Numbered from the stretch's first letter, positions 4,976 through 40,674 are shown. The stretch is 40,722 bases of DNA from Candidatus Altimarinota bacterium (GCA_027028725.1 JALVIB010000013.1:1-40722), one strand, 5' to 3'. Notes: generated by a model from the sequence alone, not told the origin. Numbers and translations: made by a program.

Positions 4976-5015
4976 AAAAATCCCGCGCTGTGCCCCGCAA
5001 GGCGGTGGAAATTTT
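4976..5015 (+). repeat. composite element copy a (intergenic, abuts trmD stop)
   Basis: AAAAATCCCGCG-CTGTGCCCCGCAAGGCGGTGG-AAATTTT: short motif split by a 21-nt cassette. Confidence 0.9.
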
Positions 5016-5667
5016 ACTGGCAATTATCCTTTCGCCATTGTTCAATCTTGGCGTGATGTCCCGACAGGAGAACTTCAGGAACTTTTAACCCGCGAAAATT
5101 TTCTGGGCGCGTATAGTGTGGATACTCTATTTTTCCATCTAATTTCGCGGAAAAAGACTCTTCCTGATGACTTTCTTCTTTGCCCAGAACATCAGGCAAA
5201 AGTCGCGCTACCGCATCAATAAAAATTTGCGCGGGTAGTTCTCCGCCAGTCAAAACAAAGTTCCCAATAGAAATTTCCATATCAACTAATTCATCGCGAA
5301 CTCGCTGATCAATTCCTTCATAATGTCCGCAGAGCAAAATAACTCGGTCAAAATCCCGCGAAATTTTTTCCGCCATTTCTTGATTAAATATTTCTTTACT
5401 TGGCGTGAAAAAAATCACTGGTGCCTTGTCTTTTTCCAAATTTTTGACATGCTCAATACTATCAAACAATGGTTGACAAGTCATCAACATTCCCGCTCCG
5501 CCACCATAAGGAACATCGTCCACTTTTTTATGTTTGTTTTTAGAAAATTCGCGAATATCCCACAACCTTACTTCAAATTTTTTCTCCTCAATCGCTCGTC
5601 CAATAATAGAAGTCGATAAAAAACTTTCAAAAGCTTCGGGGAAAAGTGTTAAAACTTCAAATTTCAT
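5014..5667 (-). CDS. trmD: tRNA (guanine37-N1)-methyltransferase
   Basis: MKFEVLTLFPE..., DDVPYGGGAGMLM, LLCGHYEGIDQRV, ISIGNFVLTGGELPA, YTRPENFRGLKVPEVLLSGHH: full set of TrmD (SPOUT) blocks. Confidence 0.93.
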   Translation of the reverse strand: MKFEVLTLFPEAFESFLSTSIIGRAIEEKKFEVRLWDIREFSKNKHKKVDDVPYGGGAGMLMTCQPLFDSIEHVKNLEKDKAPVIFFTPSKEIFNQEMAEKISRDFDRVILLCGHYEGIDQRVRDELVDMEISIGNFVLTGGELPAQIFIDAVARLLPDVLGKEESHQEESFSAKLDGKIEYPHYTRPENFRGLKVPEVLLSGHHAKIEQWRKDNCQ

Positions 5668-5824
5668 CAGCTGATTTATAGCATTTTTTCGAGTTTTGCA
5701 AAATTTCCTGCCTAACTTGTTGTTTTAGTTTTACCTGCCGGCAGGCAGGCGCGGGAATTTTAGAATAAACTTAAAAGTAAAAAAGTCGAAGAGACAAAAA
5801 ACTCCAAATTTTTCACTTCGGAAA

Positions 5825-5848
5825 GCGCGGTCACGTGACCGCGCCTAC
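5825..5848 (-). repeat. REP-like hairpin (GTAG + 20-nt perfect palindrome)
   Basis: GCGCGGTCACGTGACCGCGC followed by CTAC (the complement reads GTAG-GCGCGGTCACGTGACCGCGC). Confidence 0.8.
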
Positions 5849-5866
5849 AAAGAAGTAATTACTTTT

Positions 5867-5892
5867 AGGGCTGGCACAAGACCAGCCCCTAC
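5867..5892 (-). repeat. REP-like hairpin
   Basis: AGGGCTGG-CACAAGA-CCAGCCCCTAC. The complement starts with GTAGGGGCTGG. Confidence 0.75.
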
Positions 5893-6001
5893 ATTTTCTT
5901 CTGACCCCCAAATTTCTATCCTTTTTCAGCGAGAATTCCCGCGAAATTTTGATTTTTTAGAAAAAAAATTATAAAGTTGGAGTGTAAATAAACCCCCCTT
6001 T

Positions 6002-7810
6002 ATGAAAAAAAGAATAATCGCTTTCGTTTTAATTTTAACTTGTGGACTTGCACTTGTCCCACAGGCAAATGCTTTCCGCAGTAGATACGCTGATTTTTGG
6101 GCACAACTTTTTGGACACCATTTCAGCAACAAAAATCCCGCGAAAAAAACAATTTCGCCTTATGCTCGACGGACTACTCGCCGAACTATTAAAAGAAAGC
6201 CATTTTCGCGACTATCAAAGAGACGTTTATTATTTTCCCCCTTCGCCAAGGCTACGGCGGACAGGTCACGGGATTTTCGAAACCGTTATAATCTAAATCG
6301 GCAAAATAACACAACTGGATTGATCGCGACAATTTCGCCAACTACTCCACATCAAAGTATTTACAAAGTTACCGACGATCCGGTTAGTGTTTTTAAAATT
6401 GGTGTTCGCAATAATTCCCGCACCAGTTCGACTAAATTTCCCGCGAATTTTTTGTTGGACAAAGCGGAATTTCAACTTTTTTCTAGAAACGGAATTTTTA
6501 CCGATCCCAGCGATTTTGATTTAGTGGTGAATGGCGAATCTTTTCAGTTTGATAAAAATGGAAAAGCGACAATTAGATTCAACAATGCCAGACTGGCGGA
6601 AGGCGAAAGTTTAGAACTAGATGTTGCGATAAAAGCTGATGATCCGGACAATATGTTACATCAAAACGGAAGTGCAAAATTGCGCTTACTAAATATTACG
6701 GCAAAAAAAGAATTTTCGCGGGATTTTGTGCCAGTTCTTATTCGCGGAAGCCGTATTTCGAAACTTATTTCCTATTTGCCAACACCAGTTGTCAGTAGTA
6801 GCGGAAATTCGACAATTGTTTCAACTGCCGGTTCGTCAATTTACGGCGACTTAATTTTAGCTGGTGAAGAAAAATTTGTTTTAGCGGTTCATATGAATGC
6901 GAGTTACGACGATTTGGCGATTCGAAAAATGACGGTTCACAATGTTTATGGCAACCTGATTGATTCGCAAGTTCAGGAAATTCAAGCCGTAAATCTTTTG
7001 ACCGGAGAACTTTTGGATACTGCGATGTTTACTAACGGTGAAGCACGATTTCAGTTTTCGCCACGCGTAATTATCCCACGAAATGGTTCGGGAAAAATTG
7101 GGTTCAAGGTAAAAACCCGCGAAAATCCGCGAAATCATGGTGATCGGCGTTTGAAACTAACTTTGTCAGCCAACGATGTTTTGGTAGAAAGTTTATCTAA
7201 TGGTCGCGAATTACCGAATTCTCACAAAAATTTCAATATTGATTCTTACGATTTTGTGGTTGTGCGAAGTTCACTAGAAGTTTCTCCGCAAAATCAACCT
7301 AACAATTTTTCAATTGGAACAGGAAGCCCAGAAGGAGTTTATAATTTCGCAATAAATTCGCGGGATTCTGCAGAGCTAGCACGAATTAGTTTTGATGTTT
7401 ATCCAAACGGCTTACAATTTGCTGGAGGAAGCATTTCCCCAGACGATTTTGAGTTAGTCGAAGTTTATGGAAATCACGAAGAAAATCTAAACACAAATAT
7501 TTCAGTTAGCGGAAATAAAGTCACTTTTGATTTCGTAAATCCTCTTTCTTTCTTTCAAAATTCCGCGAAAAATTTCCGTTTAAAAGTTGCCTTGGATGAA
7601 TTAGGTGCGAGCAATGATAATGATGGAGTTTCTGTGCGAATTTCTAGCGATGGAAGTTATATTAACAATACTTTAAATTCAGTGCGTACCAGTGGAGCCA
7701 ACTTCATTTGGTCAGACGAATCCGCCAGTCCACACTCAACAAATAGTGATGACTGGTTTAGCGGATACCGAATGAATTTTCCATCTAATTCAGTTTATAT
7801 TAAGCGATAA
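6002..7810 (+). CDS. secreted protein, unknown function
   Basis: 602 aa. Signal peptide MKKRIIAFVLILTCGLALVPQANA. A basic, low-complexity N-terminal stretch partly encoded by repeats, then a beta-rich region with no motif I recognise. Confidence 0.6.
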   Translation: MKKRIIAFVLILTCGLALVPQANAFRSRYADFWAQLFGHHFSNKNPAKKTISPYARRTTRRTIKRKPFSRLSKRRLLFSPFAKATADRSRDFRNRYNLNRQNNTTGLIATISPTTPHQSIYKVTDDPVSVFKIGVRNNSRTSSTKFPANFLLDKAEFQLFSRNGIFTDPSDFDLVVNGESFQFDKNGKATIRFNNARLAEGESLELDVAIKADDPDNMLHQNGSAKLRLLNITAKKEFSRDFVPVLIRGSRISKLISYLPTPVVSSSGNSTIVSTAGSSIYGDLILAGEEKFVLAVHMNASYDDLAIRKMTVHNVYGNLIDSQVQEIQAVNLLTGELLDTAMFTNGEARFQFSPRVIIPRNGSGKIGFKVKTRENPRNHGDRRLKLTLSANDVLVESLSNGRELPNSHKNFNIDSYDFVVVRSSLEVSPQNQPNNFSIGTGSPEGVYNFAINSRDSAELARISFDVYPNGLQFAGGSISPDDFELVEVYGNHEENLNTNISVSGNKVTFDFVNPLSFFQNSAKNFRLKVALDELGASNDNDGVSVRISSDGSYINNTLNSVRTSGANFIWSDESASPHSTNSDDWFSGYRMNFPSNSVYIKR

Positions 7811-7811
7811 T

Positions 7812-7819: not shown

Positions 7820-7860
7820 ATTTTGGAAAGTCGCGCCTACAATTTTTCACACTTCTGAAA

Positions 7861-7884
7861 GCGCGGTCACGTGACCGCGCCTAA
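7861..7884 (-). repeat. REP-like hairpin, same palindrome as 5825-5844 with a variant head
   Basis: GCGCGGTCACGTGACCGCGC followed by CTAA instead of CTAC. Confidence 0.75.
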
Positions 7885-7905
7885 AAGAAAATCGCAACTT
7901 GGAAA

Positions 7906-7929
7906 GCGCGACGGCGCCGTCGCGCCTAC
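7906..7929 (-). repeat. REP-like hairpin
   Basis: GCGCGACGGCGCCGTCGCGC + CTAC. Identical to the copy at 9511-9534. Confidence 0.8.
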
Positions 7930-7977: not shown

Positions 7978-8170
7978 ATTCCTCAGACCTCTGAATTTCT
8001 CCCCTTCTTCCGTGAAATTCCCGCGAAATTTTTACTCCGCATCAGTGTACTAGTACATTAGTTCAGCCAAATCACTTTCTTATCTTATAAACTTATTGTC
8101 TTGTAAACTTGTGAACTCGTAAACCAACTCTTTATCTTTTCGACTTTTTAGCTTTTGAGCTGTCCTAAAT

Positions 8171-8198
8171 ATTAACTTTTAACTATTAACTATTAATT
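8171..8198 (+). repeat. AACTATTAAC tandem module
   Basis: ATTAACTTTTAACTATTAACTATTAATTT followed by CCCCAAAATCCCGCGAAATTT. Just 3' of the mraY stop. Confidence 0.8.
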
Positions 8199-9401: not shown

Positions 9402-9510
9402 AATTTTTTCATATTTCCGAAAGCACGAATTCTGTCCCCCTCATTGAGGGGGAATAAATACGAAGAATGAGTATTTCAGGGGGAGCTAAAAAATCGCGGG
9501 AATTTGGTAA

Positions 9511-9534
9511 GCGCGACGGCGCCGTCGCGCCTAC
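9511..9534 (-). repeat. REP-like hairpin
   Basis: GCGCGACGGCGCCGTCGCGC + CTAC. Confidence 0.8.
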
Positions 9535-9552
9535 AAAAAAAGAATAATTTTT

Positions 9553-9578
9553 AGGGCTGGTATAAGACCTGCCCCTAC
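9553..9578 (-). repeat. REP-like hairpin
   Basis: AGGGCTGG-TATAAGA-CCTGCCCCTAC (one stem mismatch). Confidence 0.7.
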
Positions 9579-9587
9579 AAAGTAAAT

Positions 9588-9611: not shown

Positions 9612-9643
9612 AACTATTAACTTCTAACTATTAACTATTAATT
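9612..9643 (+). repeat. AACTATTAAC tandem module
   Basis: AACTATTAACTTCTAACTATTAACTATTAATTT followed by CCCCAAAATCCCGCGAAATTT. Just 3' of the rplS stop. The final ~40 nt (module end plus motif) are identical to 8178-8220. Confidence 0.8.
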
Positions 9644-10321: not shown

Positions 10322-10517
10322 TTAAGGAAACTCTGATAAATAACGCAAAATAGAAAATTTTAAGATTTTTGAGATAATTTTTTTGAGAAATTGATTTTCG
10401 TAGCGGGCTACGGAAATCACTATTTCGAGGGAAAATTAGCCAAAAAGATGAATTTTGTTTTTGCGCCTGCCTAATTCCTTTATTGTGTAGAATTTTTATT
10501 TATCAGAATTTCCTTAA
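10322..10517. mobile_element. 196-bp element bounded by 21-bp inverted repeats (candidate MITE or long hairpin)
   Basis: TTAAGGAAACTCTGATAAATA (10322-10342) versus TATTTATCAGAATTTCCTTAA (10497-10517): 20 of 21 complementary. Internal hairpin CGTAGC-GG-GCTACG. Non-coding. Confidence 0.5.
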
Positions 10518-10543
10518 CTATTAACTTTTAACTATTAATTTTT
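10516..10543 (+). repeat. AACTATTAAC tandem module
   Basis: AACTATTAACTTTTAACTATTAATTTTT followed by GTAAATCCCGCGAATTTTT. 34 nt upstream of the mutL start. Confidence 0.8.
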
Positions 10544-16146: not shown

Positions 16147-16160
16147 GAAAACCTAAATTG

Positions 16161-19801: not shown

Positions 19802-19803
19802 TT

Positions 19804-19989: not shown

Positions 19990-19990
19990 A

Positions 19991-26400: not shown

Positions 26401-29400
26401 TTCGCGGGAATTATCAAAGTTTAAATCTCCTGTCATTACTTCGTCAATAACCCCCTGATTTGTGCGATAAATCGGCTTTCCTAAATCTTTGGTCAGACCA
26501 AGTTCGGATTTTTCGTTTTCGCTAGCCACTGATAAAGTCGGATCACCGAGCAAGATACAATTTTCGGAACAGGAAAATTTTGTCGCTTCTCCAACTGAAT
26601 TTTTCGCAGCAAAAAGTAGTCCTCCTTTCCAAGAAGTTGTCCAACCTAATTTTTCATCAGTTGTCGGAAAATTTGGCGCTTTCAATATTTTATCGGGTGT
26701 TTCAAATTCATTTTTCGCGATAACCGCAATTCCTTTCGGGGAAGTTGTGGTCAGCCCGTTTAAAGATTTTTCTAATTTAATAGACGGATCTAGACTCTGG
26801 AAAAATAACGAATTTCCCGCGAAATTTTTGGCTTGGAATATTTCTGAAACTTTTTTAGAAACCTCGAGTCCTGCTTCTTTTTTTGAAAACAATTTTTTCG
26901 GTGTTTGTAGTTCCTCCAAATTAAATTGAGGATCAGTCATTTTCAAAATAATTTCCCCCAATAATTTTCCTTCTAAATAAACTTCCCAATGATACAAAGA
27001 ATTATCTTTAATTCGTAATTCCAATTTGGAATTTTCGACAAAAATTCCCCCTTGCGGAGCAATTTTAAACAAAGGTTGTTCTTGATAAAAAATTTCGCGG
27101 GATTTTAGGTAAAACTCCTTAATATCTAATTCTTCAACAGGAATAAAATAAATTCCGTCTTCCTCTATTTTTTTTCTTCCTGCCCAAAAATCTACCTTCG
27201 AATCAAAATTGAATTTAGCAGAGACTTTTTTATTTAAAACGACCTCCCATTTACTACCAGAAACAACTTCCGGCTGAAAATCCCGCGCTGTGCCCCGCAA
27301 GGCGGTGGAAATTTTTCCGTCGGCAAAAATATTTCCTAATTTTTTCGCTTGTTTTTTATCAGCTATTTGTGTCGCTACCGCTTGCGTTTCACCATCAAAA
27401 AGAAAGCGATTTCCAATATTTGGCTTAGTTAAATCTCCTCCAGCAAACCCAAGTAATAATGTTAGCAAAGATTTCGGTGATAAATGCTTGAAATCACTTG
27501 TCGTCAAAACTTTTACTGCATCAATCTCGATTGTTCCCGGCAATAAATCGTCATTTTGCGCAACTATGTAAGCTTTTCCGCCATGCTCAACCGGATAAAT
27601 TTTATTAATACCTAAACCATTGGTAATTGTTAAATTTTCAGATTCTAAGGAAATAACTGGTGAAGAATTTGCGGGATTTTGGTTCTGATTCTGGACTAAG
27701 GCATCAACTTTTGCCGGATTATCCAAAATATTTAGATCCTTCAAATCTTGTGCTTTGTCCGCGAAATTTTCCGGTGGATTAACTGCAAACTGCACTTCTC
27801 CATCAAAGTCCGCGAGATTTCCATATTTATCGAGCACGCGAACTTGTAAATCTAGTGGGTTTTCATCGTCAACATTGAGAGTTTTCTTAGAACTTAAAAG
27901 TTGAATTTGATAAGGATCGCCCGCGAAAATTTGCAGGGAAAAATTGTTTTTCACAAAACCTGGTGCAGAAATTTGCACATTCAAATTGCCTGCTTTTTCG
28001 CCCGCGAAAATTTCTAGCTCCGCTTCCCCATTTTCAAAAACTATTTCTGGTAAAGCTGTCGCTTTGGCTTTATCGCTTACCAAAACCTGCGCAACAAAAT
28101 CATTTTTCAAAATTTTGCCGTCTGCCGTCTTGGCTAAAACCTTAATTTTTAACGGTTCTGTATCCCCCGCTCGCAAGTCTTTTTCCGGAATAATTGTTTC
28201 AAAAACTGGATTTTTAGCGAGTAAAATTTCCACCGCCTTGCGGGGCACAGCGCGGGATTTTTTAAGTAGAAGTGGTTTCTCATCTTCCTTTGTCGGAATT
28301 TCTGCAACCAAAGATATGTGTTCCGTAGGAATTTCGCGCTGTGCCCCGCTCTGCGGTGGGGATTTTTTCGTTGGTAAAATTTTGGTGATTTTTTTCAAAA
28401 ATTCTTCTTCCGGTTCATGTGCCTGAATGAATACTTCTCCTGCTTTTTCACCTTTTTCCAAGGTTAAATTTTCTCCAATCTGCCATTTTATTTGCTCTGC
28501 TAATTCTGGTATTTCGTTGCCATATTTATCAGTAATTCCCGTGAAAAAATTTTGCTTAACGCCGTTTATCACAAGTTTGTCTGGCGCGGAAAAAATCTCG
28601 ATTTTAGCTGGTTCAGCTGGCAAAATATCAAAATAAATTTTCGCGGGAGGAAGTAGTTTCTGTTCATCTTGTACAATAATTTCTGCTTCTCCGGCTTTAA
28701 TTCCTGGTAAGAAAACAATTTTAGCTATCCCATCTTTTATTTTGGCGCGAGCACCTGAAGTAAATTCTTCGGAAAAGAAACGCCCTTTTTCTGATGTAAA
28801 TTCTAAAATTTCGCCATCAAAACTGTGATCAATATTTCCTTCGTTATCCAAAATTTTCGCGGAAATTTCCGTTCCCGTTCCGTCTCCGGCGGTGATTTTT
28901 TCTTTATCGCTGGAAGCACTTATTCTCTTAGTTGAGATTTTTATTTGAACTTCGTTTGATTCAACTGAATTCCCGCGAAATTTAAACTTCACGACTCCCC
29001 CATTTGGTCCGCGTTTTGGCAAAAGGAAAAATTTCGCTTGTCCCGCTTTAACCAAAACTTTTTTCGCGGGCGTTATGGTAAAGAAATTTTCTAAATCTGA
29101 ACTATTACTAATCAATTCTACTTCTGTCGAATAATCGTTTTTCAAAATTTTGCCGTCAGCATCTTTGAGCGTAACTTTTATTTCCTGCGGAAAAGTCTCG
29201 TTGTTAGAAATTTTAATTGCACTTGGTTCAGCTGCAATTTCTGAAATAACAATTTCGTCTGCAGTTTTCACTGGACTTAAATCAAAAGAAGACAAATTTT
29301 TCGCGGGATTTTTATCTGTATTCTCTGAACTATCTTCTTTTTCTAAATCAACATTTGGAATTAGTTTTGTTATTTTACTCAAAACATTCGGCAATTCTTG

Positions 29401-32027: not shown

Positions 32028-35000
32028 TTATTTTGGAGGACTCCAACTCATTAAAACTTTTTCAATAACTTCAGTATTTTCAAAGTATTTTTCGCGTGTT
32101 TCTGGACTATCTAATAATTTTTTTGCCTTTTCCCAAACACCACTTTCTTCCAACTTCTTTTTTCGCTCTTTATATTGAATTCCATATTCCAAAACACCCA
32201 TAAAATCTAAAACTTCTCCAAATCCATCATCACCACCAGCAACTTGAAAAACCTGTTTCATAAAACTATTAATTTGTTCTTTGCTTCTTTGAGCCGAAGC
32301 TGAATAACCTGTATCTTCCTTTCTCCAATCTTCTGCATTAAAGACTATTGAACCACGCTCCTGTCCAAGGTTAATATTACCTTGAAGTGTTTGAGTTACA
32401 GTTAAAGCCGCATTTAATCTGTCTCCAACCTCAATTAATGCTCTTTTCCTTTCTTTTTGCCAACCAGGTAATTCACCCCATTTTTCATCTCCTTCTTTAA
32501 TATAATCCCGCATCATTTGCATATATGTCGGAAATCCTGATAAATAACGACGCCAAAGGTCGTTTGACAATTTGTTTTCACCACCAGAAGATTGTGACAT
32601 ATTGTTTATAAGATGGACCTGCTTCCAGTCCGCGAAAAAACTTTCTGCATCATCATGATCTCCCTCTTTATCTGAAAAACGATCCATTCGCGAAACACGA
32701 TCACGAGCCGGTGGGGAAGCATGTACAATATGATAAAAGAATTTTTTTGTTTGTTCTTTAATATTAGAATCATTAAGAATATCAAAAGACCCACCTCCAT
32801 TACCAAGAAAGTCTCCCCAAGCCTTATAGTCTTCATATGTCCACCCTCTTTTTTCTGCTCCTGGAGTGTCTTCTGGAACAATTCTGCCATTTAATTTATA
32901 AGATTCCTTATCTGTTAAAAAATCAACATGTGGAAATCTTGCTAAAAATTTATCATTAATTCGCATAAAGGCATCTCGTGAAATTAAACTACGATTTGTT
33001 TTAGGATTTATAGTAGCAACCCCCATTACTAAAAAATACCATCTTTGATCAGGTTGTCCGTTCATTTTTCCTTTCTCAAAAGACTCATGAATAAAACATT
33101 CATATTTCGCGGGATCTACATCTGTACTATCTCCTCTTGCCCATTTTTTTAACATTGTTGATAAAATCCTACTCCTAGCTACAGGAGAGTCCTCATATCT
33201 AGCAAAATCAGCTTTAAAACTATCGATTGCTGAATCAAGTTTACCTTTAAGATTAGTATCCCAATCTCGGAATGTTTCTTTTGACCAAATAAATTCACAA
33301 GCATTACGAACTTTGTCCAAGATTTCTAAACGAGAAAGATTTAAGTCTTCAGGAATACGGAAAGTAACTGCATTTCCGGACAACCTCATCAAAGTTCTCC
33401 ATAGTCCAGGATCATCCCATTGCAAAACCCCCTTATCTAACATCAATCTAATCAAAGCTTTAGCTTCATCTTGGTCATTGGTACGATATAAGGCATCTTG
33501 CAAATCCCATCCCGGCACTTCTCCATACTGAGTTTCAAATTCTTTAACCCGGTTTTCTTCTGCTTCTTCTGCCTTTTGCTTAAAATCTTTTCCCCAAGCT
33601 GATTTCTCACCAAAAAAACTCATTCCAATATTTGCCACAGCTCGCTCTGAATCACGCTGCCATCTTCTTTCATGCACTTCAATTGCTTGTTTTACAATGG
33701 CATATAAATCATACAATGAGAATCTTTGATAATTCCTCTGAGGACCACTGTTTTTGGCATTATCATCATATTCTGTCACCCATTTTTTAATTTTTTGCGC
33801 ACTATCATTGGCGCTCTTTGAATAATCTCGCAAAGAATTAAAATCTGCCATTTCAGCAATAGCTTCTGCTCTGTCCTGCGGAGATGCATCATAACGATTA
33901 ATCCAGTCTTTTAGGAACCCTGACTTAAAAAATTTATCTGATTTTTCTTTAAATTCATTCAGTCTTGCTCTATGTTGACTCAAAATATCTTCTAAATACT
34001 CCTTATCCAAACCATATTTATTAAAGAAGTCTTGATCATCCATTTTGTTTAAATCTCGACGGATTCGACTTTCAACATCATTAATTGCTTCCTGATATTC
34101 CGCGAAATCTTTTTTAAACCCTTTAACTACCTCATTATAATTTTTGGTAAATTCTTCTTTATCAGGCGTATCATCATCAAAAAATTGCAACTCGGTCAGA
34201 AGCTCCAAAGCTCTATTGGAATCTTCCAAATATTTATTTAAAGACTCACTTTCTTTAGCAAATTTCCCGTCTCGAAAATTCAAAGCTGTTTCAAGTTTGA
34301 TGAAATTATCAGCGAAAATTTCCCAGAAAGTCTCTTTTCCCGTAAATTTATAATCAATTTTTTTCGCGTGTTTTTGCAAATTATCAAAAGTCTTCTGGAA
34401 ACTATCCAACATTTTCATTGGAACTTCCATCAATAAATCGGTAAATTCAGCCGGATTAACTCCTTCCGGCAAAACTTCGTTAATGACTGTACCTAAATCT
34501 AAAAATTTATTTCTTAATTTCTCCTTTTGTTCCGGCCATTTCTCAAAAAGTTTATCTAACTCATTTTTAGCTTCTGCTTGACGCAAACTCGCCGCAATCG
34601 GATCATCTTTCATCTTAGAAATCCCGCGAAATTTTTCAGCAATTTGGGCAATATCATCCCGTAATCCATTAGTTATTTCTGCAATTTCATTATTAACACT
34701 CTGTGTTTGTAAAGCTATTTCATTCAAAAACTCGCGCCCCGGAGCCCAAATTAATTTAGGTTTACCATTTTTATCTTTTCCCCAATATCGCCCGCCTCTT
34801 TGATAAGCTTGTTTGCGGTACTCAAAGGACTCTTCTAATTTATCTGCTTCATCTAAATAATGTTGTTTTTTCGCGGGATTTGTTTCTTCTTCAGCTTTAC
34901 GACGCAACCGTTCTACATAAGCTTCATTAACTTGGTGTGCATCTTCTATTTCTTGTGATGTAATTAATTTATTTTGCTCATAAGCCACATGATCTTCGTG

Positions 35001-37418
35001 TAATTTTGTCGGATCAACTCCCGCTGCCAAACCATTATGAATTCGGTCCCAACCAGCATAGAAGTCATTTAATTCTTCTTCGGTCAATTCATCACGAACA
35101 TCTCTTGAGGCAATATCAAAGATTCGATCTCGATAACTGTGAATTGCTCCATCAACAAGCTGTGAAAGTTGTTGTGGATGCGGAAATTCTTGTCGCAAAT
35201 CAAATCCTTCTTCTGCCAAACGCGCAATAATATTTTCGTAACTAAGCGCTTTATCTAGTTCGTTATACCATGGCGAGAATTTATCTTCTCCGTCTGAAAG
35301 ATGTTCAATATCCGGTAAAACAGTGTCTTCAAAAATTGATTCCAAAATTCCCGCGAATTTTTGACGAAATTCATTAACTTTTTCCTTATTTGGAGTGTTT
35401 AGAATATTATCGCGAAATTCCGCAAAATCTGCATAATAAGGATTTCGCGGATTATTAACTTCGTCTCCCCAGAGAACTTCAAAATCCGCCGCATATAAAT
35501 TTCGATTAGCAATTCTTGAATTTATATTACTTAAAAATAAATCCTTTGATTCTCTCGCGACTTTTTTCGGGTCTTTTAGGAAATGTTGCCAAGTTTTATA
35601 TGTGTCTAAATTCTTTGTTTCATCGCGAACCTTTTCTTTTAATTTTTTATATTTTTCATTTAGCTTATTTCTTTCTTCCTCGTAAGAACTTACGATTGGC
35701 ACTTGTCCATAAAGCGTTTTGGCTTGATTTTCCCACCTATTAATTTCTTGACCATACTTTTTAAATCCTTCCTGTTGTTTCTTGTAATTCTCATTTTCTT
35801 TTAAGTCTGAGCTAAGCTTAATTGATAATTCTCTAAATTCTTCAATAAATTTTTCGCGGGATTTTAAATCACTTCCTATGCTTGCCTTATCCGTTGAAAA
35901 TCTTTTTATTTTCGCGGGAATTCCTTCTTTTATCTCTTTTTCTTTATTTTCAAATCTTTTTTCATTATTTTTCAGTAATTCTTCTCTTCTCTTCTCATCT
36001 TCTATTTTCTGAATTTCTAAATCACTTTTAATTTTTTCCAATTCAAGTTCTTCTAATTTCTTTTCCTTTATGCTTTCCCATGCCTTTTCCAAATCCTTAA
36101 CCCATTCATCAAAATCTTTATTCCAATGTCTTTCAATAATTTCATTTTTTTCTTCTAATAATTTTTTATAGTTCTGCTCAATTACTTCTACTTTATTAAA
36201 ATCAACAATTTTAGACGCTTCCCAAGCGTCTTTAATTTTTTTCTTCTCCGTCTCATTTCCTTCTAAATAAGACTGAAGACCATATCTTTCTACTGACAAT
36301 TTTTTATTTTCCAAATCTCGCAGTTTCTTTTCCAACTTATCTAGTTCCTCATTTTCCGCAGAAAAATTGAGCCATTCATCTAAATCTTTAATTTGAACGA
36401 GTTCAAAATCTTCTTGCAAAATTTCGTGCAAAGCTTGCAGATGTGTCGGCAAGAAAACCGGCGATTTTTGCGCAAATTGCAAAAACTTAATCGCTTCAGT
36501 TGATTTAAATGCTTTATTAATCTCTTCTTCTTTTACGATACTGAGAATTTTGCGTCGCAAAGTTTCTGCCGACTCTACTTCTGATGGACTTCCCAAAAAC
36601 TCGCGAAGTAATTCCCAAGTAAAAGCCATATTAGGATTGTAAAGTTTCTTTGGCGACTTCAAGAGAGTGGCCACCGCCTGAACAGCAATATTATCCCAAT
36701 CATAAAACCGACTTTTTTCCGCCCATTTTCTCTCGTTCGGAAACATTCGACGAATCTCCAAAACAAGCAATTTTTCTTCCAAAGTCATTACTTCATTCTT
36801 CTTTGATTCAATAATATCGTAGGCCTTATCCCCGCTAGTGACAGACTTGGTCATCAAAGTAAAAGCCTTATCCACAATTTTTTCGCGGGCTTTTTCAAAA
36901 ACATCTTTTCGTTTCCCGTCTTTCAAAACAGCATTTTTTTGTAACCTTCGATACAAAGCACAAACTTTGGAAAGCTCAAAAGTGCTCCAATTATTTTTAT
37001 TCACAATGCTCCCCAAAGCACGCACCTGCTTATCAACTTCCGCGATAATTTGGTTCTGCATACGCTTTGGTAGAAGCTTACGCAGTGGAGAATCCGCTAA
37101 ATGATTCAACAATCGCGGTGGCAAATCTTCCATATCTTTCCCCCGCGCTAAGCTCAGCTGATATCCCGCGATATTTCGAAAACGACGCTTTTGAAAAGCG
37201 TTCATATGCTCCGCATTTTCTTCCAAAAATCGCAATTCTTTCACACCAAACCCTAGCGGACTGCGCAGAGCTTTTTCTATTTGTTTATCAATATCTTCCT
37301 TATCTTCAGGAACAGAAGGTCCTTTTGGTCCACCGGCAAAGTATAAAAATTTACCAGCGCCGTGCCCCGCTAAGCGGTGGAAATCTTCATTTTCAAACCC
37401 GTTAAATAATTTTTTCAT
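32028..37418 (-). CDS. large (about 1,796 aa) E/K-rich coiled-coil protein, no signal peptide, unknown function
   Basis: Uninterrupted ORF 86 nt upstream of the giant gene on the same strand. Start set at MKKLFNG (ATG complement 37416-37418), because the tracked 23-aa extension is read through a motif copy (FFAGF). No catalytic motif recognised. Confidence 0.65.
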   Translation of the reverse strand: MKKLFNGFENEDFHRLAGHGAGKFLYFAGGPKGPSVPEDKEDIDKQIEKALRSPLGFGVKELRFLEENAEHMNAFQKRRFRNIAGYQLSLARGKDMEDLPPRLLNHLADSPLRKLLPKRMQNQIIAEVDKQVRALGSIVNKNNWSTFELSKVCALYRRLQKNAVLKDGKRKDVFEKAREKIVDKAFTLMTKSVTSGDKAYDIIESKKNEVMTLEEKLLVLEIRRMFPNERKWAEKSRFYDWDNIAVQAVATLLKSPKKLYNPNMAFTWELLREFLGSPSEVESAETLRRKILSIVKEEEINKAFKSTEAIKFLQFAQKSPVFLPTHLQALHEILQEDFELVQIKDLDEWLNFSAENEELDKLEKKLRDLENKKLSVERYGLQSYLEGNETEKKKIKDAWEASKIVDFNKVEVIEQNYKKLLEEKNEIIERHWNKDFDEWVKDLEKAWESIKEKKLEELELEKIKSDLEIQKIEDEKRREELLKNNEKRFENKEKEIKEGIPAKIKRFSTDKASIGSDLKSREKFIEEFRELSIKLSSDLKENENYKKQQEGFKKYGQEINRWENQAKTLYGQVPIVSSYEEERNKLNEKYKKLKEKVRDETKNLDTYKTWQHFLKDPKKVARESKDLFLSNINSRIANRNLYAADFEVLWGDEVNNPRNPYYADFAEFRDNILNTPNKEKVNEFRQKFAGILESIFEDTVLPDIEHLSDGEDKFSPWYNELDKALSYENIIARLAEEGFDLRQEFPHPQQLSQLVDGAIHSYRDRIFDIASRDVRDELTEEELNDFYAGWDRIHNGLAAGVDPTKLHEDHVAYEQNKLITSQEIEDAHQVNEAYVERLRRKAEEETNPAKKQHYLDEADKLEESFEYRKQAYQRGGRYWGKDKNGKPKLIWAPGREFLNEIALQTQSVNNEIAEITNGLRDDIAQIAEKFRGISKMKDDPIAASLRQAEAKNELDKLFEKWPEQKEKLRNKFLDLGTVINEVLPEGVNPAEFTDLLMEVPMKMLDSFQKTFDNLQKHAKKIDYKFTGKETFWEIFADNFIKLETALNFRDGKFAKESESLNKYLEDSNRALELLTELQFFDDDTPDKEEFTKNYNEVVKGFKKDFAEYQEAINDVESRIRRDLNKMDDQDFFNKYGLDKEYLEDILSQHRARLNEFKEKSDKFFKSGFLKDWINRYDASPQDRAEAIAEMADFNSLRDYSKSANDSAQKIKKWVTEYDDNAKNSGPQRNYQRFSLYDLYAIVKQAIEVHERRWQRDSERAVANIGMSFFGEKSAWGKDFKQKAEEAEENRVKEFETQYGEVPGWDLQDALYRTNDQDEAKALIRLMLDKGVLQWDDPGLWRTLMRLSGNAVTFRIPEDLNLSRLEILDKVRNACEFIWSKETFRDWDTNLKGKLDSAIDSFKADFARYEDSPVARSRILSTMLKKWARGDSTDVDPAKYECFIHESFEKGKMNGQPDQRWYFLVMGVATINPKTNRSLISRDAFMRINDKFLARFPHVDFLTDKESYKLNGRIVPEDTPGAEKRGWTYEDYKAWGDFLGNGGGSFDILNDSNIKEQTKKFFYHIVHASPPARDRVSRMDRFSDKEGDHDDAESFFADWKQVHLINNMSQSSGGENKLSNDLWRRYLSGFPTYMQMMRDYIKEGDEKWGELPGWQKERKRALIEVGDRLNAALTVTQTLQGNINLGQERGSIVFNAEDWRKEDTGYSASAQRSKEQINSFMKQVFQVAGGDDGFGEVLDFMGVLEYGIQYKERKKKLEESGVWEKAKKLLDSPETREKYFENTEVIEKVLMSWSPPK
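37354..37385 (+). repeat. composite element copy h (degenerate left flank; in frame at the N-terminus of the 1,796-aa gene)
   Basis: CCAGCG-CCGTGCCCCGCTAAGCGGTGG-AAATC. Read antisense as DFHRLAGHGAGKF. Confidence 0.8.
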
Positions 37419-37653: not shown

Positions 37654-37687
37654 AACTATTAACTTTTAACTATTAACTATTAATTTT
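37654..37687 (+). repeat. AACTATTAAC tandem module
   Basis: AACTATTAACTTTTAACTATTAACTATTAATTTT. In the divergent spacer between the 1,796-aa and 677-aa genes. Confidence 0.8.
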
Positions 37688-37826: not shown

Positions 37827-39860
37827 ATGTCATTTGCAGTTCACACTTTCGAAACTCATCCCGAAGATTCGGGACTGGCTTTTGCTTATCACGAAAATAT
37901 TGGCGAAGGTCAAGATGTTTTTTTTCGCGGGAAATTTCCCGAAGGCACAACTGATGCGACAACTGTTGCTGAATCTATTTTCGGGGCAATTGTTGATAGT
38001 TTAAAAATTCTTAAAAAAGGTGATAGCTACGATCGTTTTGAAGATGCTTTGAAGTCAGCAAATTTAGAATTCAAGAAAAATCTCGCGAAAATTCCAGCTA
38101 TGCCAGACATTGTTGTGAGTTATTTTGATTTTAACAATTTGTATTTAAGTCAGTCTGGAAAAGCCGAGGCTTACTTAATTCGCAACGGAGCAATTTCACA
38201 AATTTCCGAAACACCGGACTCTGATAGCGAATTATTTTTAAATATTCTAAGCGGACAAGTAGCCGTTAACGATATAATTTTAATTAGCAATAATCGCCTA
38301 TTGCACTCTATTACGACAAGCCAATTAATCGATATTTTTTCGCGGGCAGATTTCAAAGAAGCCGTAGCAACTTTGCGACACGAATTACAAATGAAATCCG
38401 AAGAAGATTTAATTGTTACGGTTATCGGAGTCGGGAAAAAAGAAGATTTAGGCGCTGCTGGATTTCTTTCACGTATGGTTTCCAAAATGTCTGCACCAAA
38501 AGTTTTAGACAAGGTTTACACTGCTGACAAAGATGAAGAAATCTCAGCCGAAATTGAAGAAAATCCCGCTGCGCCCCGCAAGGCGGTGGCGAAATTAGCT
38601 GAAGAAGTGCCAAATGAACCTGAATGTGAACCCAAATTAATTTCTGATGAAGACATTGAAGCACCGAAAAAACTTGATGAGAAATTTGAAATGGAAATGC
38701 CGAAAGTGGATTTGAAAAATATCGGAAAATTAGGCGAAAAAATCCCTAATTTTTTCCGCAACCTTCCGCCAAAAAAGGTTTTGATGAAATACGCGGGAAT
38801 TGTCGCGGGACTTTTGATTTTATTCATCGCTGGAAAAGCAATTATCGGATACGAATCAGAAGACACCAAAGCCATGCGCGAAGAATTATCTATCGCTCGT
38901 GAAGCTATTCAACAAGCTGATATTTTCTTGACCCAAGGAGATCGTCAATCAGCTTCTGATTTATTAACAAAAGCTCAAAGTTCTCTACAAGTTGTTTTGA
39001 ATTCTAAATCACAATTTCGTTCTGATGCTCAATTTTTATTGGCTGATATTCAAGAAAAACAACTTCAAGTCGAAAACGCCCACAAAGTTCAGGCGCAGGT
39101 TTTATCTGATTTAGCGACCAAAAACGACAACATTGTTGCTAACGGCTTGCTAAAACTCCGCGAAAATTTATTCGCTTATGACTCTCACTTAGTTTACAAA
39201 ACAATCAGAAATATTGTCGAAAAAGGTGTAACAATTTCCGATAAAGAAAGTATCGTATCAGGTGCGGTTCGTGAGCCACAAAACACCTTGGTATTTTTGA
39301 CAGATATACCGCGAGTTATTGAATACAAAAATGGAGTAATTTCTCCGATGTCCACTTCTGACGAAACTTGGAAACACGGTTTAGATATTGAAACCTACGG
39401 ATCTCGTTTTATCTACATTCTTGATCCGGTCGAAAACCAAATTTGGAAATACGAGCGCCGAAAAAACAACTACTCTGGAGCAATTGCTTATAATCAAGGT
39501 GCTGACTTATCTCGCGCTATTAGTTTCGCAATTGACGGTGCGCTTTATGTACTTTCTGATGATGGAACTATCCAGAAATTATTTCGCGGGGAAAAACAAG
39601 AATTCGCTTTCCGCGAAATGCCAAGCACTCCGATTTCTGGTAAAAATTTAAAGATTTACACTTCCGCTGACCTTGATTACCTCTATATTCTTGATCCGGA
39701 TAACGAACGAATTTTGATCTTCACCAAAGGTGAAAAATTCGCGACTTATAAGAAACAAATTATTTACAGCGTTCCTGGTGCGGCAGATTTCGTAATTGAT
39801 AGCGCCGGACAAAAAGCCAACATTGTCACTAAAGACAAAATTTACGAATTCTCACTATAA
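37827..39860 (+). CDS. bitopic membrane protein: cytoplasmic PP2C-like (apparently inactive) domain, one TM helix, large extracytoplasmic beta-rich domain
   Basis: 677 aa. Residues 1-210 follow the PP2C block order (...SGKAEAYLIRNGAISQISE..., ...NDIILISNNRLLHSIT..., ...EDLIVTVIGV), but the metal-binding Asp positions are replaced. TM helix YAGIVAGLLILFIAGKAIIGY at about 38775-38850. One composite repeat in frame (PAAPRKAVA). Confidence 0.5.
   Translation: MSFAVHTFETHPEDSGLAFAYHENIGEGQDVFFRGKFPEGTTDATTVAESIFGAIVDSLKILKKGDSYDRFEDALKSANLEFKKNLAKIPAMPDIVVSYFDFNNLYLSQSGKAEAYLIRNGAISQISETPDSDSELFLNILSGQVAVNDIILISNNRLLHSITTSQLIDIFSRADFKEAVATLRHELQMKSEEDLIVTVIGVGKKEDLGAAGFLSRMVSKMSAPKVLDKVYTADKDEEISAEIEENPAAPRKAVAKLAEEVPNEPECEPKLISDEDIEAPKKLDEKFEMEMPKVDLKNIGKLGEKIPNFFRNLPPKKVLMKYAGIVAGLLILFIAGKAIIGYESEDTKAMREELSIAREAIQQADIFLTQGDRQSASDLLTKAQSSLQVVLNSKSQFRSDAQFLLADIQEKQLQVENAHKVQAQVLSDLATKNDNIVANGLLKLRENLFAYDSHLVYKTIRNIVEKGVTISDKESIVSGAVREPQNTLVFLTDIPRVIEYKNGVISPMSTSDETWKHGLDIETYGSRFIYILDPVENQIWKYERRKNNYSGAIAYNQGADLSRAISFAIDGALYVLSDDGTIQKLFRGEKQEFAFREMPSTPISGKNLKIYTSADLDYLYILDPDNERILIFTKGEKFATYKKQIIYSVPGAADFVIDSAGQKANIVTKDKIYEFSL
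38560..38596 (+). repeat. composite element copy i (in frame in the 677-aa gene)
   Basis: AAAATCCCGC-TGCGCCCCGCAAGGCGGTGGC-GAAATT. Read as NPAAPRKAVAKL. Confidence 0.85.
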
Positions 39861-39881
39861 AAAATTTTTTAATAAATCACA

Positions 39882-39893
39882 AAGTCCGGACTT
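39882..39893. repeat. AAGTCCGGACTT palindrome, 22 nt after the 677-aa gene stop
   Basis: Exact 12-mer. Confidence 0.85.
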
Positions 39894-39913
39894 TAAATGT
39901 TCTGAAAAGAATT

Positions 39914-39925
39914 AAGTCCGGACTT
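39914..39925. repeat. AAGTCCGGACTT palindrome, second of a pair
   Basis: Exact 12-mer, 20 nt after the first copy. Confidence 0.85.
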
Positions 39926-39939
39926 AAATTTATAAAAAT

Positions 39940-39947
39940 CCCGCGAA
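39940..39947 (+). repeat. short motif core, 4 nt upstream of the FNR-family start codon
   Basis: AAAAATCCCGCGAAAAAAATG. Confidence 0.9.
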
Positions 39948-39951
39948 AAAA

Positions 39952-40674
39952 ATGAAAGATTTCACCAGCAAAATTCTCGATATCAAAAAAATTGCGACAG
40001 ACACCAAGCGTTTTATTTTTTCTAAACCAACTAATTACGATTTTCAAGCGGGACAATTTTTGATTATAAAATTCGCGAAAGATTTGATACGCGCTTATTC
40101 CATCGCTTCTCCGCCGAGTGAAGAAAATTTGGAACTAGTTATTCGCATTATTCCCAATGGTCGCGGGACAAGTATTCTGGATAAAGCCAAAATTAGTGAT
40201 GAGTTTACTATTTCTCAATCGATGGGACATTTTGTTTTATCAGAAAATCAAGAAGCGGAATTATTTTTTCTGGCTACAGGAACAGGAATTGCCCCATTTA
40301 AATCTATGATTTGCACAGAAGCGCAGAAAAAAATCCCGCGAAAAATGCATTTGTTTTACGGCGGACGCCAAGTGGAAGATTTACCTTATTTAGACGAAAT
40401 TTCCTCTTGGACAGAAAATTTGGAAGTTAAGATTGGTCTTTCTCGTGATCCTGATGCTAAAAAAAGAGAATTTTCAAACTTAAAAGCTGAAATTGATAAC
40501 TGCCGAATTACCAAATTCATTGAAAACGAAAATTTCCACCGCTTAGCGGGGCACGGCGCGGGAAATTCCGAGTTTTACATCTGCGGAAATAAAGGCATGG
40601 TCGAAGGAACTCGCGATTTATTATTAGAAAAAGGAATAGAAAAATCACGGATATTTTTTGAGAAGTTTAATTAA
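39952..40674 (+). CDS. ferredoxin-NADP reductase-family FAD/NAD(P)-binding oxidoreductase
   Basis: 240 aa. FAD motif RAYSIAS, NAD(P) motif LATGTGIAPFKSM, C-terminal YICG block. A 12-aa repeat-encoded insertion (FHRLAGHGAGNS) sits just before YICG. Confidence 0.75.
   Translation: MKDFTSKILDIKKIATDTKRFIFSKPTNYDFQAGQFLIIKFAKDLIRAYSIASPPSEENLELVIRIIPNGRGTSILDKAKISDEFTISQSMGHFVLSENQEAELFFLATGTGIAPFKSMICTEAQKKIPRKMHLFYGGRQVEDLPYLDEISSWTENLEVKIGLSRDPDAKKREFSNLKAEIDNCRITKFIENENFHRLAGHGAGNSEFYICGNKGMVEGTRDLLLEKGIEKSRIFFEKFN
40529..40567 (-). repeat. composite element copy j (in frame in the FNR-family gene)
   Basis: Reverse complement is AATTTCCCGCG-CCGTGCCCCGCTAAGCGGTGG-AAATTTT. Read antisense as NFHRLAGHGAGNS. 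Confidence 0.9.

Follow-up and report, generated by a model that had tools for sequence, protein, structure and literature searches.

The repeated element that lies in frame in five genes of the window (the whole 40.7-kb stretch of DNA that was analyzed) is an insertion of 21 nt, and our best explanation, held with about even confidence, is that this cassette is a very small, non-autonomous mobile insertion that enters pre-existing copies of an abundant 18-nt word. The pattern that this explanation has to account for is itself very probably correct: the cassette is always 21 nt long, carries neither target-site duplication nor terminal inverted repeats, leaves native flanks, occurs in both orientations and once with a 2-nt offset (CG^CG, where ^ marks the junction), is younger than the word, and represents a lineage-specific and partly recent invasion. 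The original prediction had described a repeated, hairpin-forming element colonizing unrelated ORFs in frame, an observation that orthologue gaps for eight of the nine genic copies bear out; its interpretation is only partly supported, and the anatomy differs.

The cassette and the word it occupies

When the copies are aligned, the cassette is a GC-rich unit of 21 nt, CYGYG-CCCCGC-loop-GCGGTGG, with a head of C[TCA]G[TC]G followed by C and a loop of AAG, TCT, TCC or TAA. The pattern GCCCCGC-NNN-GCGGTGG has 10 perfect copies in the 40.7-kb window as opposed to 0.6 by chance. An unanchored search of the window with GCCCCGCNNNGCGGTGG, allowing up to 3 mismatches, returned the same ten perfect copies that had been predicted, together with two unrelated 3-mismatch matches, while shuffled sequence gives 0.59 expected matches and a maximum of 2. 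As predicted, the first copy is intergenic, the other nine lie within long ORFs belonging to five genes, and none of them interrupts a frame.

Copy 1: 4988..5008, + strand; loop AAG; intergenic, 6 nt past the TrmD stop codon; composite extent 4976-5015; flanks AAAAATCCCGCG and AAATTTT
Copy 2: 19495..19515, + strand; CCGCG form with TCT loop; Cys-rich 559-aa gene, antisense; insert TAERGAA
Copy 3: 22083..22103, - strand; CAGTG form with AAG loop; giant gene, sense; insert AVPRKAV
Copy 4: 23330..23350, + strand; TAA loop; giant gene, antisense; insert HRLAGHS
Copy 5: 27288..27308, + strand; AAG loop; giant gene, antisense; insert TALRGTA
Copy 6: 28230..28250, - strand; AAG loop; giant gene, sense; insert AVPRKAV
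Copy 7: 28339..28359, + strand; TCT loop; giant gene, antisense; word reversed, with AATTTCGCG before the cassette and GGATTTT after it
Copy 8: 37360..37380, + strand; TAA loop; 1796-aa gene, antisense; insert HRLAGHG at residues 14-20
Copy 9: 38569..38589, + strand; CTGCG form with AAG loop; 677-aa gene, sense
Copy 10: 40536..40556, - strand; TAA loop; FNR-like gene, antisense; insert HRLAGHG at residues 196-202
Cys-rich 559-aa gene: 18122..19801, - strand; hosts copy 2; large family, 2853 representatives
Giant gene, 3844 aa: 20407..31941, - strand; hosts five copies; 62% identity to orthologue P0122 at 100% length coverage
1796-aa gene: 32028..37418, - strand; hosts copy 8
677-aa gene: 37827..39860, + strand; hosts copy 9; L004 orthologue at 76% identity
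FNR-like flavoprotein gene, 240 aa: 39952..40674, + strand; hosts copy 10
Empty 18-nt word, example of the target type: 40330..40347, + strand; AAAATCCCGCGAAAAATG; encodes KIPRK in the FNR-like gene

The uniform flanks of the original prediction, AAATCCCGCG on the left and AAATTT on the right, hold for seven of the ten copies. The other three depart from them: copy 7 sits in a reversed word, copy 9 is shifted 2 nt to the left (CCCG, cassette, CGAAATT, i.e., CCCG^CG), and the left flank of copy 8 has decayed. The reversed configuration (TTTCGCG, cassette, GGATTT) occurs both in the window and on contigs L127 and L129. Among 18 copies from the window and other contigs, orthologous pairs included, the left junction reads ..CGCG^ whatever the orientation of the word, with three exceptions: copy 9 (..CCCG^), the decayed copy 8 (..CAGCG^), and the distal member of a tandem pair on L149, which adjoins the first cassette.

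The host word is AAAATCCCGCG^AAATTTT, 18 nt with a palindromic CGCG core, and the window holds 107 copies of it with at most 1 mismatch versus 4.2 expected, a density of about 2.6 per kb or one per ~400 bp. About 97 of these lack a cassette, so that empty sites outnumber filled ones by roughly 10:1. All ten window cassettes found by the unanchored search lie at the CGCG core of a word copy, and the six true metagenome matches all have a word-like left flank, on the side that the search pattern left free. The word predates the cassette. It overlies conserved residues without indels, including the SHNPA active-site loop of GlmM and the KIPRK of the FNR-like protein, and 16 of the 19 word sites in the L152 orthologue of the giant gene fall in columns orthologous to word sites of the window. 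Within the scope of our census (about 40 kb plus eight short contigs) there are 16 independent copies of the cassette, 12 genic and 4 intergenic, a split that matches the 29% of word copies that are intergenic. Cassettes favor one orientation of the word (about 11 canonical, 3 reversed), and recognition must therefore involve more than CGCG. Copies with the TAA loop accompany GAATTTCCCGCG, and reversed sites have TCT or TCC loops.

The predicted fold, CCCCGC-loop-GCGG(T)GG, is the minimum-energy structure when the 21-mer is folded by itself (-4.2 kcal/mol, z -1.3 to -2.2), while the 39-nt composite folds otherwise and no better than its shuffles (z -0.2 to -0.55). As the original prediction had noted, the stem is conserved and the loop varies in several forms; with the stem nearly invariant, there is no covariation for or against the hairpin.

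Empty sites in orthologous genes

For eight of the nine genic copies we found orthologues in which the word is unbroken and exactly 21 nt (7 aa) are cleanly missing, native flanks being kept between filled and empty sites. At copy 2, a clean seven-column gap separates DFS from R in seven orthologues (33-58% identity) of the Cys-rich protein. Four of the five copies in the giant gene have an empty counterpart in L152, which reads ccaaaatcccgcg^aaaaatttt without interruption at copy 3 (where the 7 aa are missing from four orthologues), gaaaatttc^gcgggaaattt at copy 4, gaaaatttc^gcgggattta at copy 5, with a clean 7-aa gap, and acaaaatcccgcg^aaattttaatt at copy 6. The orthologous L152 region has diverged at copy 7, the one genic copy of nine without a demonstrated empty site. 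At copy 8 the L004 orthologue reads gag gat ttc^gcg gga aat, again uninterrupted, at copy 9 relative L002 (84.6% nucleotide identity) has GAAAATCCCGCGAAATTA with a clean 21-nt gap, and at copy 10 a seven-column gap is present in 12 FNR-like orthologues, the empty site of L003 being aaaatttc^gcgggaaattc. Orthologue comparison was the test by which the original prediction had proposed that it could be refuted, and its clean gaps instead identify the shared peptides, as predicted, as insertions at the DNA level and not a protein motif.

Non-consensus bases beside the junction are native and unchanged, for instance AAAAAT at copy 3 and AAATTA at copy 9. No target-site duplication is seen in the filled and empty pairs beyond a 1-nt ambiguity of G, and the ends of the cassette, CTGTGCC... 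and ...GCGGTGG, are not mutual inverted repeats when read from the sequence; the cassette thus has neither of these two marks of MITEs, which derive from DDE transposases.

On these sequence comparisons the invasion is lineage-specific and partly recent. Copy 2 is also present in the close relative L137 (85.5% nucleotide identity) and copy 10 in L002; the absence of copy 9 from the latter, 85% identical, makes that insertion recent. Neither 25.5 kb of GCA_964567875.1 nor 21.5 kb from the ERR15087768 organism contained a cassette, although the word is present in both at ~2 per kb (Poisson probability of zero, 0.002 and 0.005, respectively). The closest named relatives of the host are Candidatus Gracilibacteria and Peregrinibacteria, and the host is not a cyanobacterium.

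Possible modes of spread

A trans-acting, sequence- and strand-specific activity may insert the cassette, a possibility to which we give somewhat less than even weight, and by analogy the likeliest candidate would be a single-strand-DNA enzyme of the HUH/Y1 type. Such an enzyme, as in REP/RAYT and IS200/IS605, would recognize the hairpin plus a short target (..CG^). The insertion point itself is immediately 3' of the CGCG core as read on the cassette strand. Within the 40.7-kb window there is no Y1/HUH or any other transposase domain, including Y1_Tnp, and no match to TnpA. Several points count against an HUH enzyme: the cassette is a single 21-nt hairpin, with neither the two subterminal hairpins found in IS200/IS605 nor the GT[AG]G head that REPs carry, its fold at -4.2 kcal/mol is weak and lacks covariation support, the orientation bias relative to the word calls for recognition of more than CGCG, and the correlation of loop subfamilies with flank variants is also expected from copying that depends on homology.

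Spread templated by homology, with no dedicated enzyme, is less probable though still worth weighing. One word copy would have gained the 21-nt insert, which ectopic short-patch gene conversion or replication template switching would then have carried to other word copies, the near-identical halves of the word (left, 10-11 nt; right, 3-7 nt) providing the homology. With a word every ~400 bp, donors and recipients are plentiful, and the loop subfamilies track flank variants that are already present at empty sites, as expected if a recipient must match its donor. Copies 8 and 10, only 3 kb apart, have 46 nt in common at 91%, and the host N-terminus near copy 8 shows an additional nearby length change relative to its orthologue. 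Recombination, however, normally requires homology arms far longer than these word halves. With empty sites in excess by ~10:1, unbiased conversion would erase cassettes, yet two copies have been kept across 85%-identical relatives. Nor could the 2-nt shifted junction of copy 9 and the copies in reversed words have been copied from canonical donors, and native non-consensus flank bases only 4-6 nt from the junction were left unconverted. Beyond the word, non-orthologous copies have no common flanks; the best such pair (copy 8 and the L002 orthologue of copy 10) has a null fraction of 0.001 among 153 pairs, which is not significant after multiple testing.

The original prediction had taken the mobile unit to be a composite of 36-40 nt (motif, hairpin cassette and AAATTT) that adds 12-13 aa, and similarity among the ten copies does span 35-46 nt. 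This is very improbable, since all eight documented empty sites have adjacent word halves and a gap of 21 nt or 7 aa, never 36-40 nt, and the "motif" part recurs about 97 more times without the cassette, over conserved residues such as the SHNPA loop of GlmM. A composite as the mobile unit is thus refuted for eight of the nine genic copies by empty sites that hold an intact word. It is scarcely credible, too, that the 7-aa segments are ancestral and were precisely deleted elsewhere, or are a convergently selected peptide or RNA motif: nothing specific favors this beyond the two copies conserved between 85%-identical relatives, the segment is missing from 12 FNR-like, seven Cys-rich and up to four giant-protein orthologues and is present only in the lineage of the window, the same DNA is read in four frames and also occurs between genes, so that no single peptide is selected, and nothing in the window reaches an Rfam gathering score.

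Protein consequences and known systems

Four of the six possible frames are in use among the genic copies, and the peptides listed in the original prediction (SRAVPRKAVE, PAAPRKAVA, FHRLAGH(G/S)AGN, STALRGTARDF/STAERGAARDF and SPPQSGAQRE) were all reproduced. The preservation of frame had been seen as consistent with purifying selection. The frame is kept because 21 nt make 7 codons and because the AAG, TCT and TCC forms are stop-free in all six frames; length and freedom from stops account for it, and it is therefore no evidence of selection. In the TAA form stops do occur, in one of the sense frames and in one of the antisense frames. The claim that this form is safe when read antisense is only partly right, as cTTAGc yields TAG in one antisense frame, and the argument built on it is weak, the TAA-loop copies all being in one frame and, save for the decayed copy 8, in one word variant. 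There is a weaker signal elsewhere: frames encoding Cys or Trp are used by 0 of 12 independent genic copies versus 32% of genic word sites (p = 0.0105), and copies that encode these residues appear to have been filtered out.

As a mobile insertion, a 7-codon, GC-rich, nearly stop-free element is automatically in frame and persists as a 7-aa insert in loops and variable linkers. Copy 9 is located in a variable linker of the 677-aa protein. The original prediction had asked whether insertion sites map to surface loops. In the predicted model of the FNR-like protein, the insert of copy 10 lies in a low-confidence surface coil flanked by H186-192 and E206-211, and pLDDT falls below 50 nowhere but at residues 198-202.

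The original prediction had likened the element to Rickettsia palindromic elements (RPEs), which were reportedly described by Ogata et al. (2000, Science 290:347; 2002, Genome Res 12:808; summary in PMC10969869). The analogy holds for the outcome and fails for size, target specificity and sequence. Like RPEs, the cassette is a dispersed palindromic repeat that inserts in frame in unrelated genes, adds a peptide tolerated by the fold, and is revealed as an insertion by orthologues that lack it; RPEs, however, measure about 100-150 bp and contribute tens of residues each (PMC10969869). In contrast, the cassette is 21 nt (7 aa), is strictly specific for the CGCG core within a hyper-abundant word, occurs in four reading frames, has no sequence relationship to RPEs, and resides in a bacterium related to Patescibacteria/Gracilibacteria. 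Cyanobacterial small dispersed repeats (SDRs), reportedly described by Elhai et al. (2008, Genome Res 18:1484, cited in PMC3116915), are mobile repeats of 21-27 nt with a hairpin context; they are said to have been found through filled and empty sites and frequently lie within other repeats. The cassette, at 21 nt, is likewise dispersed, and mobile judging by eight empty sites, one of them in an 85%-identical relative; unlike SDRs in sequence and phylum, it targets one defined position in an 18-nt word and is mostly intragenic and in frame. We know of no enzyme that mobilizes SDRs. The cassette resembles RPEs and SDRs in behavior and is a member of neither family.

With IS200/IS605 elements of the HUH superfamily (10.1101/279083) the cassette shares strand-specific insertion 3' of a short, specific target without duplication, and those elements depend on DNA hairpins as it may. 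They span 100 nt or more and carry a hairpin at each end, whereas the cassette is a single 21-nt hairpin, and the window contains no TnpA. DNA uptake sequences (USS/DUS) and cyanobacterial HIP1 (PMC5861425) are analogues of the host word and not of the cassette. Like them in its sequence features, the host word is strongly over-represented on both strands and in all frames, arises by substitution and codon choice and not by indels, and is conserved among relatives; it is denser (about 2.6 per kb). As with REP/REPIN-RAYT systems (PMC3116915), the cassette is a short, GC-rich, imperfect palindrome in the range of ~20-40 nt with many near-identical copies and no target duplication. Unlike REPs, which are extragenic, it starts with CYGYG-C in place of a GT[AG]G head, is mostly intragenic (12 of 16 copies), and does not form inverted REPIN doublets. 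The window also contains other, classical-looking REPs with a GTAG head (TGTAGG).

Cassette copies and empty sites in orthologous genes

We searched the window for the hairpin core GCCCCGCNNNGCGGTGG with up to three mismatches and unconstrained flanks, and recovered exactly ten perfect copies along with two unrelated matches that each carry three mismatches. With dinucleotide-preserving shuffles giving a mean of 0.59 matches and a maximum of 2, the ten copies of the original prediction are borne out at their positions. Nine lie within long ORFs, interrupt none of them, and use four of the six possible frames; all of the peptides previously listed were recovered on translation. The tenth copy (4988-5008) lies 6 nt past the stop codon of TrmD. 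Since the cassette, for which the search pattern is YNGYGCCCCGCNNNGCGGTGG, is also found in independent assemblies (ENA ERZ27262687, JGI Ga0256832, and JGI Ga0256914), it is not an assembly artefact.

The surroundings of the cassette belong to a second, hyper-abundant sequence. Allowing one mismatch at most, we counted 107 copies of the 10-mer AAATCCCGCG in the 40.7-kb window, against 4.2 in shuffles, and aligning these copies yields an 18-nt word, AAAATCCCGCG followed by AAATTTT (also written AAAATCCCGCGAAATTTT). In the ten copies previously described as a composite, this same word is split between CGCG and AAATTT by 21 additional bases. On the cassette strand the 5' neighbouring bases end in CG in all copies, mostly as CGCG. 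Examples of the word and the exceptional cassette copies are as follows:

196-205, 3135-3144, and 40331-40340: word copies
Cassette copy 28339: reversed word, reading AATTTCGCG, cassette, GGATTTT
Cassette copy 38569: insertion point 2 nt further left, reading CCCG, cassette, CGAAATT
Cassette copy 37360: left flank decayed

Comparison with orthologues, the check by which the original prediction itself could have failed, identified the shared peptides as insertions, as had been proposed, with an empty site available for eight of the nine genic copies. In the FNR-like protein, HRLAGHG in the window corresponds to HLLAGRG in an 84%-identical relative, and twelve other orthologues (50-73% identity) have a clean 7-column gap; at the DNA level, the L003 orthologue reads aaaatttc/gcgggaaattc, and the window carries 21 additional bases at the slash, which marks the insertion site. 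The orthologue of the giant gene on L152 (P0122, from GCA_964567875.1; 62% identical) has unbroken words at copies 22083, 23330, 27288, and 28230, and is too diverged around copy 28339 for a filled or empty call. Contig L004 covers the N-terminal part of the giant gene and reads gat ttc/gcg gga at the insertion site of the 1796-aa gene. For the Cys-rich gene, seven family members (33-58% identity) have DFS and R on either side of a 7-column gap, and for the 677-aa gene, contig L002, from ERZ27262687, reads GAAAATCCCGCGAAATTA, cleanly lacking the 21 nt. Over window positions 38410-40674, L002 is 84.6% identical in nucleotides. Because it has the FNR-like copy in common with the window and is without the 677-aa copy, insertions took place both before and after its split.

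Each documented empty site carries an intact word and a gap of exactly 21 nt, and no target duplication was found at the documented empty and filled sites. Native flank bases that deviate from the consensus are kept (AAAAAT at copy 22083, AAATTA at copy 38569), and pairwise comparison of non-orthologous copies found no sharing of flanks beyond the word. Given these 21-nt gaps, intact words, and native flanks, the mobile unit is the 21-nt cassette with a protein insert of 7 aa, not the 36-40-nt composite with a 12-13-aa insert envisaged earlier. Joint movement with flanks beyond the word was considered on account of 46 nt common to the pairs 4976/28223 and 37354/40529; it was ruled out as a general rule by the AAATTTTA flank being ancestral at the L152 empty site, and is also countered by flank similarity being non-significant except in orthologous pairs. 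Separately, the 84%-identical FNR-like orthologue (L002, ~1880-1940) has a 15-aa (45-nt) insertion of its own with no obvious hairpin, directly upstream of the gene's other word copy, which encodes KIPRK.

The word and the distribution of the cassette

The word is found on either strand and in each of the six frames, including within housekeeping genes, where it encodes peptides such as NPAK, KSRE, FAGF, and SRDF. Nearly every intergenic spacer also holds one, often directly 3' of a TAA stop codon. Because it overlies conserved residues, such as those of the SHNPA loop of GlmM, the word is a product of codon choice rather than of insertion. The giant gene of the window has 27 word sites, and 16 of the 19 in its L152 orthologue fall in columns orthologous to them; the sites are old. 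The word, whose position is conserved between proteins just 62% identical, poses a question of its own, apart from the cassette. In kind, it resembles DNA uptake sequences or HIP1. AT-rich direct repeats of the type TTAACTATTAACTTTTAACTATTAA, mostly adjoining a word copy, lie near gene ends and starts:

8167-8195: AT-rich direct repeat
9612-9640: AT-rich direct repeat
10509-10537: AT-rich direct repeat
16156-16184: AT-rich direct repeat
37654-37682: AT-rich direct repeat

The word also occurs in contigs L004, L152, L153, L154, and L155. Its density in relatives is about 2 per kb, and more distant relatives, whose MutL is 52-55% identical, are largely without it. In one contig, L156 (JGI Ga0209249_1000526; MutL 55% identical), the CCCGCG word falls to 0.37 per kb. 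The top 10-mers of that contig, TTTTGAAAAA and TTTGAAAAAA, number 16 each in 21.7 kb and may represent another abundant word.

The cassette has a narrower distribution than the word. Two related organisms, GCA_964567875.1 (L152 and L153, 25.5 kb) and that of ERR15087768 (L004 and L154, 21.5 kb), have about 2 words per kb and zero cassettes, for which the Poisson probabilities at the window's cassette density are 0.002 and 0.005, respectively. A metagenome scan with the left flank unconstrained gave six true matches, each in a low-GC, word-rich contig:

L118: TAA loop
L123: intergenic copy with an AAG loop
L127 and L129: copies within reversed words, with loops TCT and TCC
L137: orthologue of copy 19495
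L149: tandem pair of cassettes between convergent genes

The tandem pair (L149 223-264) reads CCGTGCCTCGCCCCGCGGTGG then CCGTGCCCCGCTCTGCGGTGG, flanked by AAATTTCGCG and TAAATTTT, which suggests that the site was either entered more than once or duplicated locally. Two related hairpins that depart from the canonical cassette, a perfect 19-nt CCCCCCGCCTTGCGGGGGG at a word-like intergenic site (L127 3696-3714) and ATCCCGCTCTGCGGGGG in the spacer that follows the gene for an amidohydrolase (window 4180-4196), may be sibling or precursor forms of the cassette.

Elsewhere, the genome-contig scan with GCCCCGCNNNGCGGTGGAAA returned, among the matches listed, chance ones in GC-rich genomes and none with the word, and so does not bear on distribution; all 4 matches in viral contigs were likewise due to chance. 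In phage and plasmid records, BLAST with the composite as query gave no match, or chance ones at E = 0.6. No Rfam family was found in the window, and neither the word nor the cassette was found described in the searchable literature, including that on CPR/Patescibacteria uptake sequences and Gracilibacteria palindromes. The host proteins have their nearest named relatives in Candidatus Gracilibacteria and Peregrinibacteria (46-52% identity), and the ORFs of the window are intact with the standard genetic code.

Reading frames, peptides, and hairpin structure

The unbroken frames had been taken as a sign of purifying selection. As the cassette is seven codons long and nearly free of stops (the AAG, TCT, and TCC loop forms have none in any of the six frames), frame preservation is built into it and intact frames carry little weight for selection. 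The same holds for the argument that TAA-loop copies are read antisense to avoid a stop, as this form has a stop in one sense and one antisense frame. Independent copies divide into 12 genic and 4 intergenic, which matches the word, 29% of which is intergenic or at gene edges. At the level of peptides there is a real if modest signal of selection: none of the 12 independent genic copies uses the frames encoding LCPARRW or CAPQGG, to which the frames of 32% of genic word sites correspond (p = 0.0105). The only cassette in a word read in the NPAK frame is the 2-nt-offset copy, the offset placing it in the VPRKAV frame.

Mapping an insert onto a predicted structure, as had been suggested, located it in coil. 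In a confident model of the FNR-like protein (240 aa; mean pLDDT 91.8), the insert spans residues 196-202 between a helix (186-192) and a strand (206-211), and pLDDT drops below 50 at residues 198-202 and nowhere else. In the 677-aa protein the cassette lies within a variable linker. The shared cassette peptides (AVPRKAV, HRLAGHG, TALRGTA, and PPQSGAQ) could be mistaken for protein motifs and create false homology links, and the word peptides carry the same risk.

Taken by itself, the 21-mer adopts the fold CCCCGC-loop-GCGG(T)GG, with -4.2 kcal/mol (z -1.3 to -2.2), and the 39-nt composite prefers another fold that is no more stable than shuffles. Over 11 distinct cassette sequences the stem is nearly invariant, and it is positions 2 and 4 and the loop (AAG, TAA, TCT, TCC, or CCC) that vary. 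The stem may plausibly be under constraint; no compensatory changes occur among the 11, the invariance of the stem making covariation uninformative.

Mechanism of insertion and related repeats

Insertion is precise: 21 nt are added at the CGCG core of a word that was already in place, the target is not duplicated, and terminal inverted repeats are lacking. The cassette occurs in both orientations relative to the word, and one junction is offset by 2 nt. By analogy with IS200/IS605 and REP/RAYT systems, the most likely mechanism, which we put forward tentatively, would be strand-specific insertion of single-strand DNA 3' of a short target. The main rival, homology-templated copying between word copies, would agree with loop subfamilies following flank variants; it is possible but doubtful, being at odds with junctions that are shifted or reversed, with flank bases left unconverted, with the 10-to-1 surplus of empty donors, and with the copies kept across relatives. 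DDE-type MITE transposition is ruled out by the lack of duplication and of terminal inverted repeats. Taken as a whole, our best explanation has about an even chance of being correct.

No candidate mobilising enzyme was found within the window. The Cys-rich 559-aa protein, absent from the syntenic place in L152, was considered as a lineage-specific enzyme and dismissed as a member of a widespread family (2853 representatives at E <= 1e-3). It has no Pfam, NCBIfam, or PDB match, and its single-sequence structure model (pLDDT 33) is useless. Its gene, with a spacer of ~600 nt, lies between the giant and NTP-transferase genes (window 18122-20406), as it does in L137, and both gene and spacer are missing from that position in GCA_964567875.1 (L152 12213-12253).

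The small dispersed repeats of cyanobacteria are reportedly tiny, with evidence for mobility, and the cassette is like them in size and in the type of that evidence. These repeats, of Elhai et al. 2008, are cited in PMC3116915. Rickettsia RPEs (PMC10969869) are alike in outcome, so that the analogy drawn in the original prediction holds for in-frame colonisation and fails on their defining size. MITEs have the terminal inverted repeats and target duplication missing here, REPs have a GTAG head and an extragenic location that the cassette does not share, and IS200/IS605 ends have two hairpins as against one. The cassette is a variant among the mobile repeats of very small size and the palindromic elements inserted in frame; what sets it apart is a size of 21 nt, an exact target within a hyper-abundant word, and the lineage of its host. 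Overall, the original observation stands, with its interpretation partly supported.

A bolder reading, which we consider speculative, is that this would be the smallest described site-specific mobile DNA: a 21-nt single hairpin homing, with no target duplication, to the CGCG core of an uptake-sequence-like word that serves as a genome-wide landing pad in a Patescibacteria/Gracilibacteria-group bacterium. Its mover would be a new or minimal HUH-type activity or an unrecognised templated mechanism, with 7-aa insertion polymorphisms across the proteome as a by-product.

To the selfish DNA within protein-coding genes known from Rickettsia RPEs, the cassette adds an element of seven codons, from an uncultured bacterium with a reduced genome. 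The clean anatomy (21-nt insert, no duplication, target word every ~400 bp) makes the mechanism directly testable. The repeats may also break up genome assemblies in this lineage.

In-frame repeat colonisation is not confined to the 21-nt cassette, since repeat blocks in MutL vary in presence among aligned orthologues 72-79% identical. The linker of MutL (10577-12460) holds other in-frame palindromic repeats at 11584-11611, 11655-11675, and 11765-11808. Its palindromes include a GTAG-headed, REP-like TGTAGGGACAGGTCGCGACCTGTCC encoding FVGTGRDLS, another repeat, CCCTCTCCCCGAGGGAGAGGG, and two AAGTCCGGACTT palindromes, the pair of which recurs at 39882-39925. GC-rich palindromes cluster between genes at 5817-5893, 7853-7929, and 9503-9579 and terminate in CCTACA, the GTAG head on the other strand (GCGCGGTCACGTGACCGCGCCTAC, GCGCGACGGCGCCGTCGCGCCTAC, GGGCTGGCACAAGACCAGCCCCTACA); they resemble classical REP elements, which suggests that a RAYT is encoded in the genome. 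Lastly, a 30-nt GC-rich stretch at 6237-6266 (minus strand, ACCTGTCCGCCGTAGCCTTGGCGAAGGGGG), within a 602-aa ORF (6002-7810), directly follows the word-like AAATCCCGTG and precedes AAAATAA. It includes ACCTGTCCGCC, half of the MutL REP-like palindrome, and may represent an in-frame insert of another sort at a comparable site.
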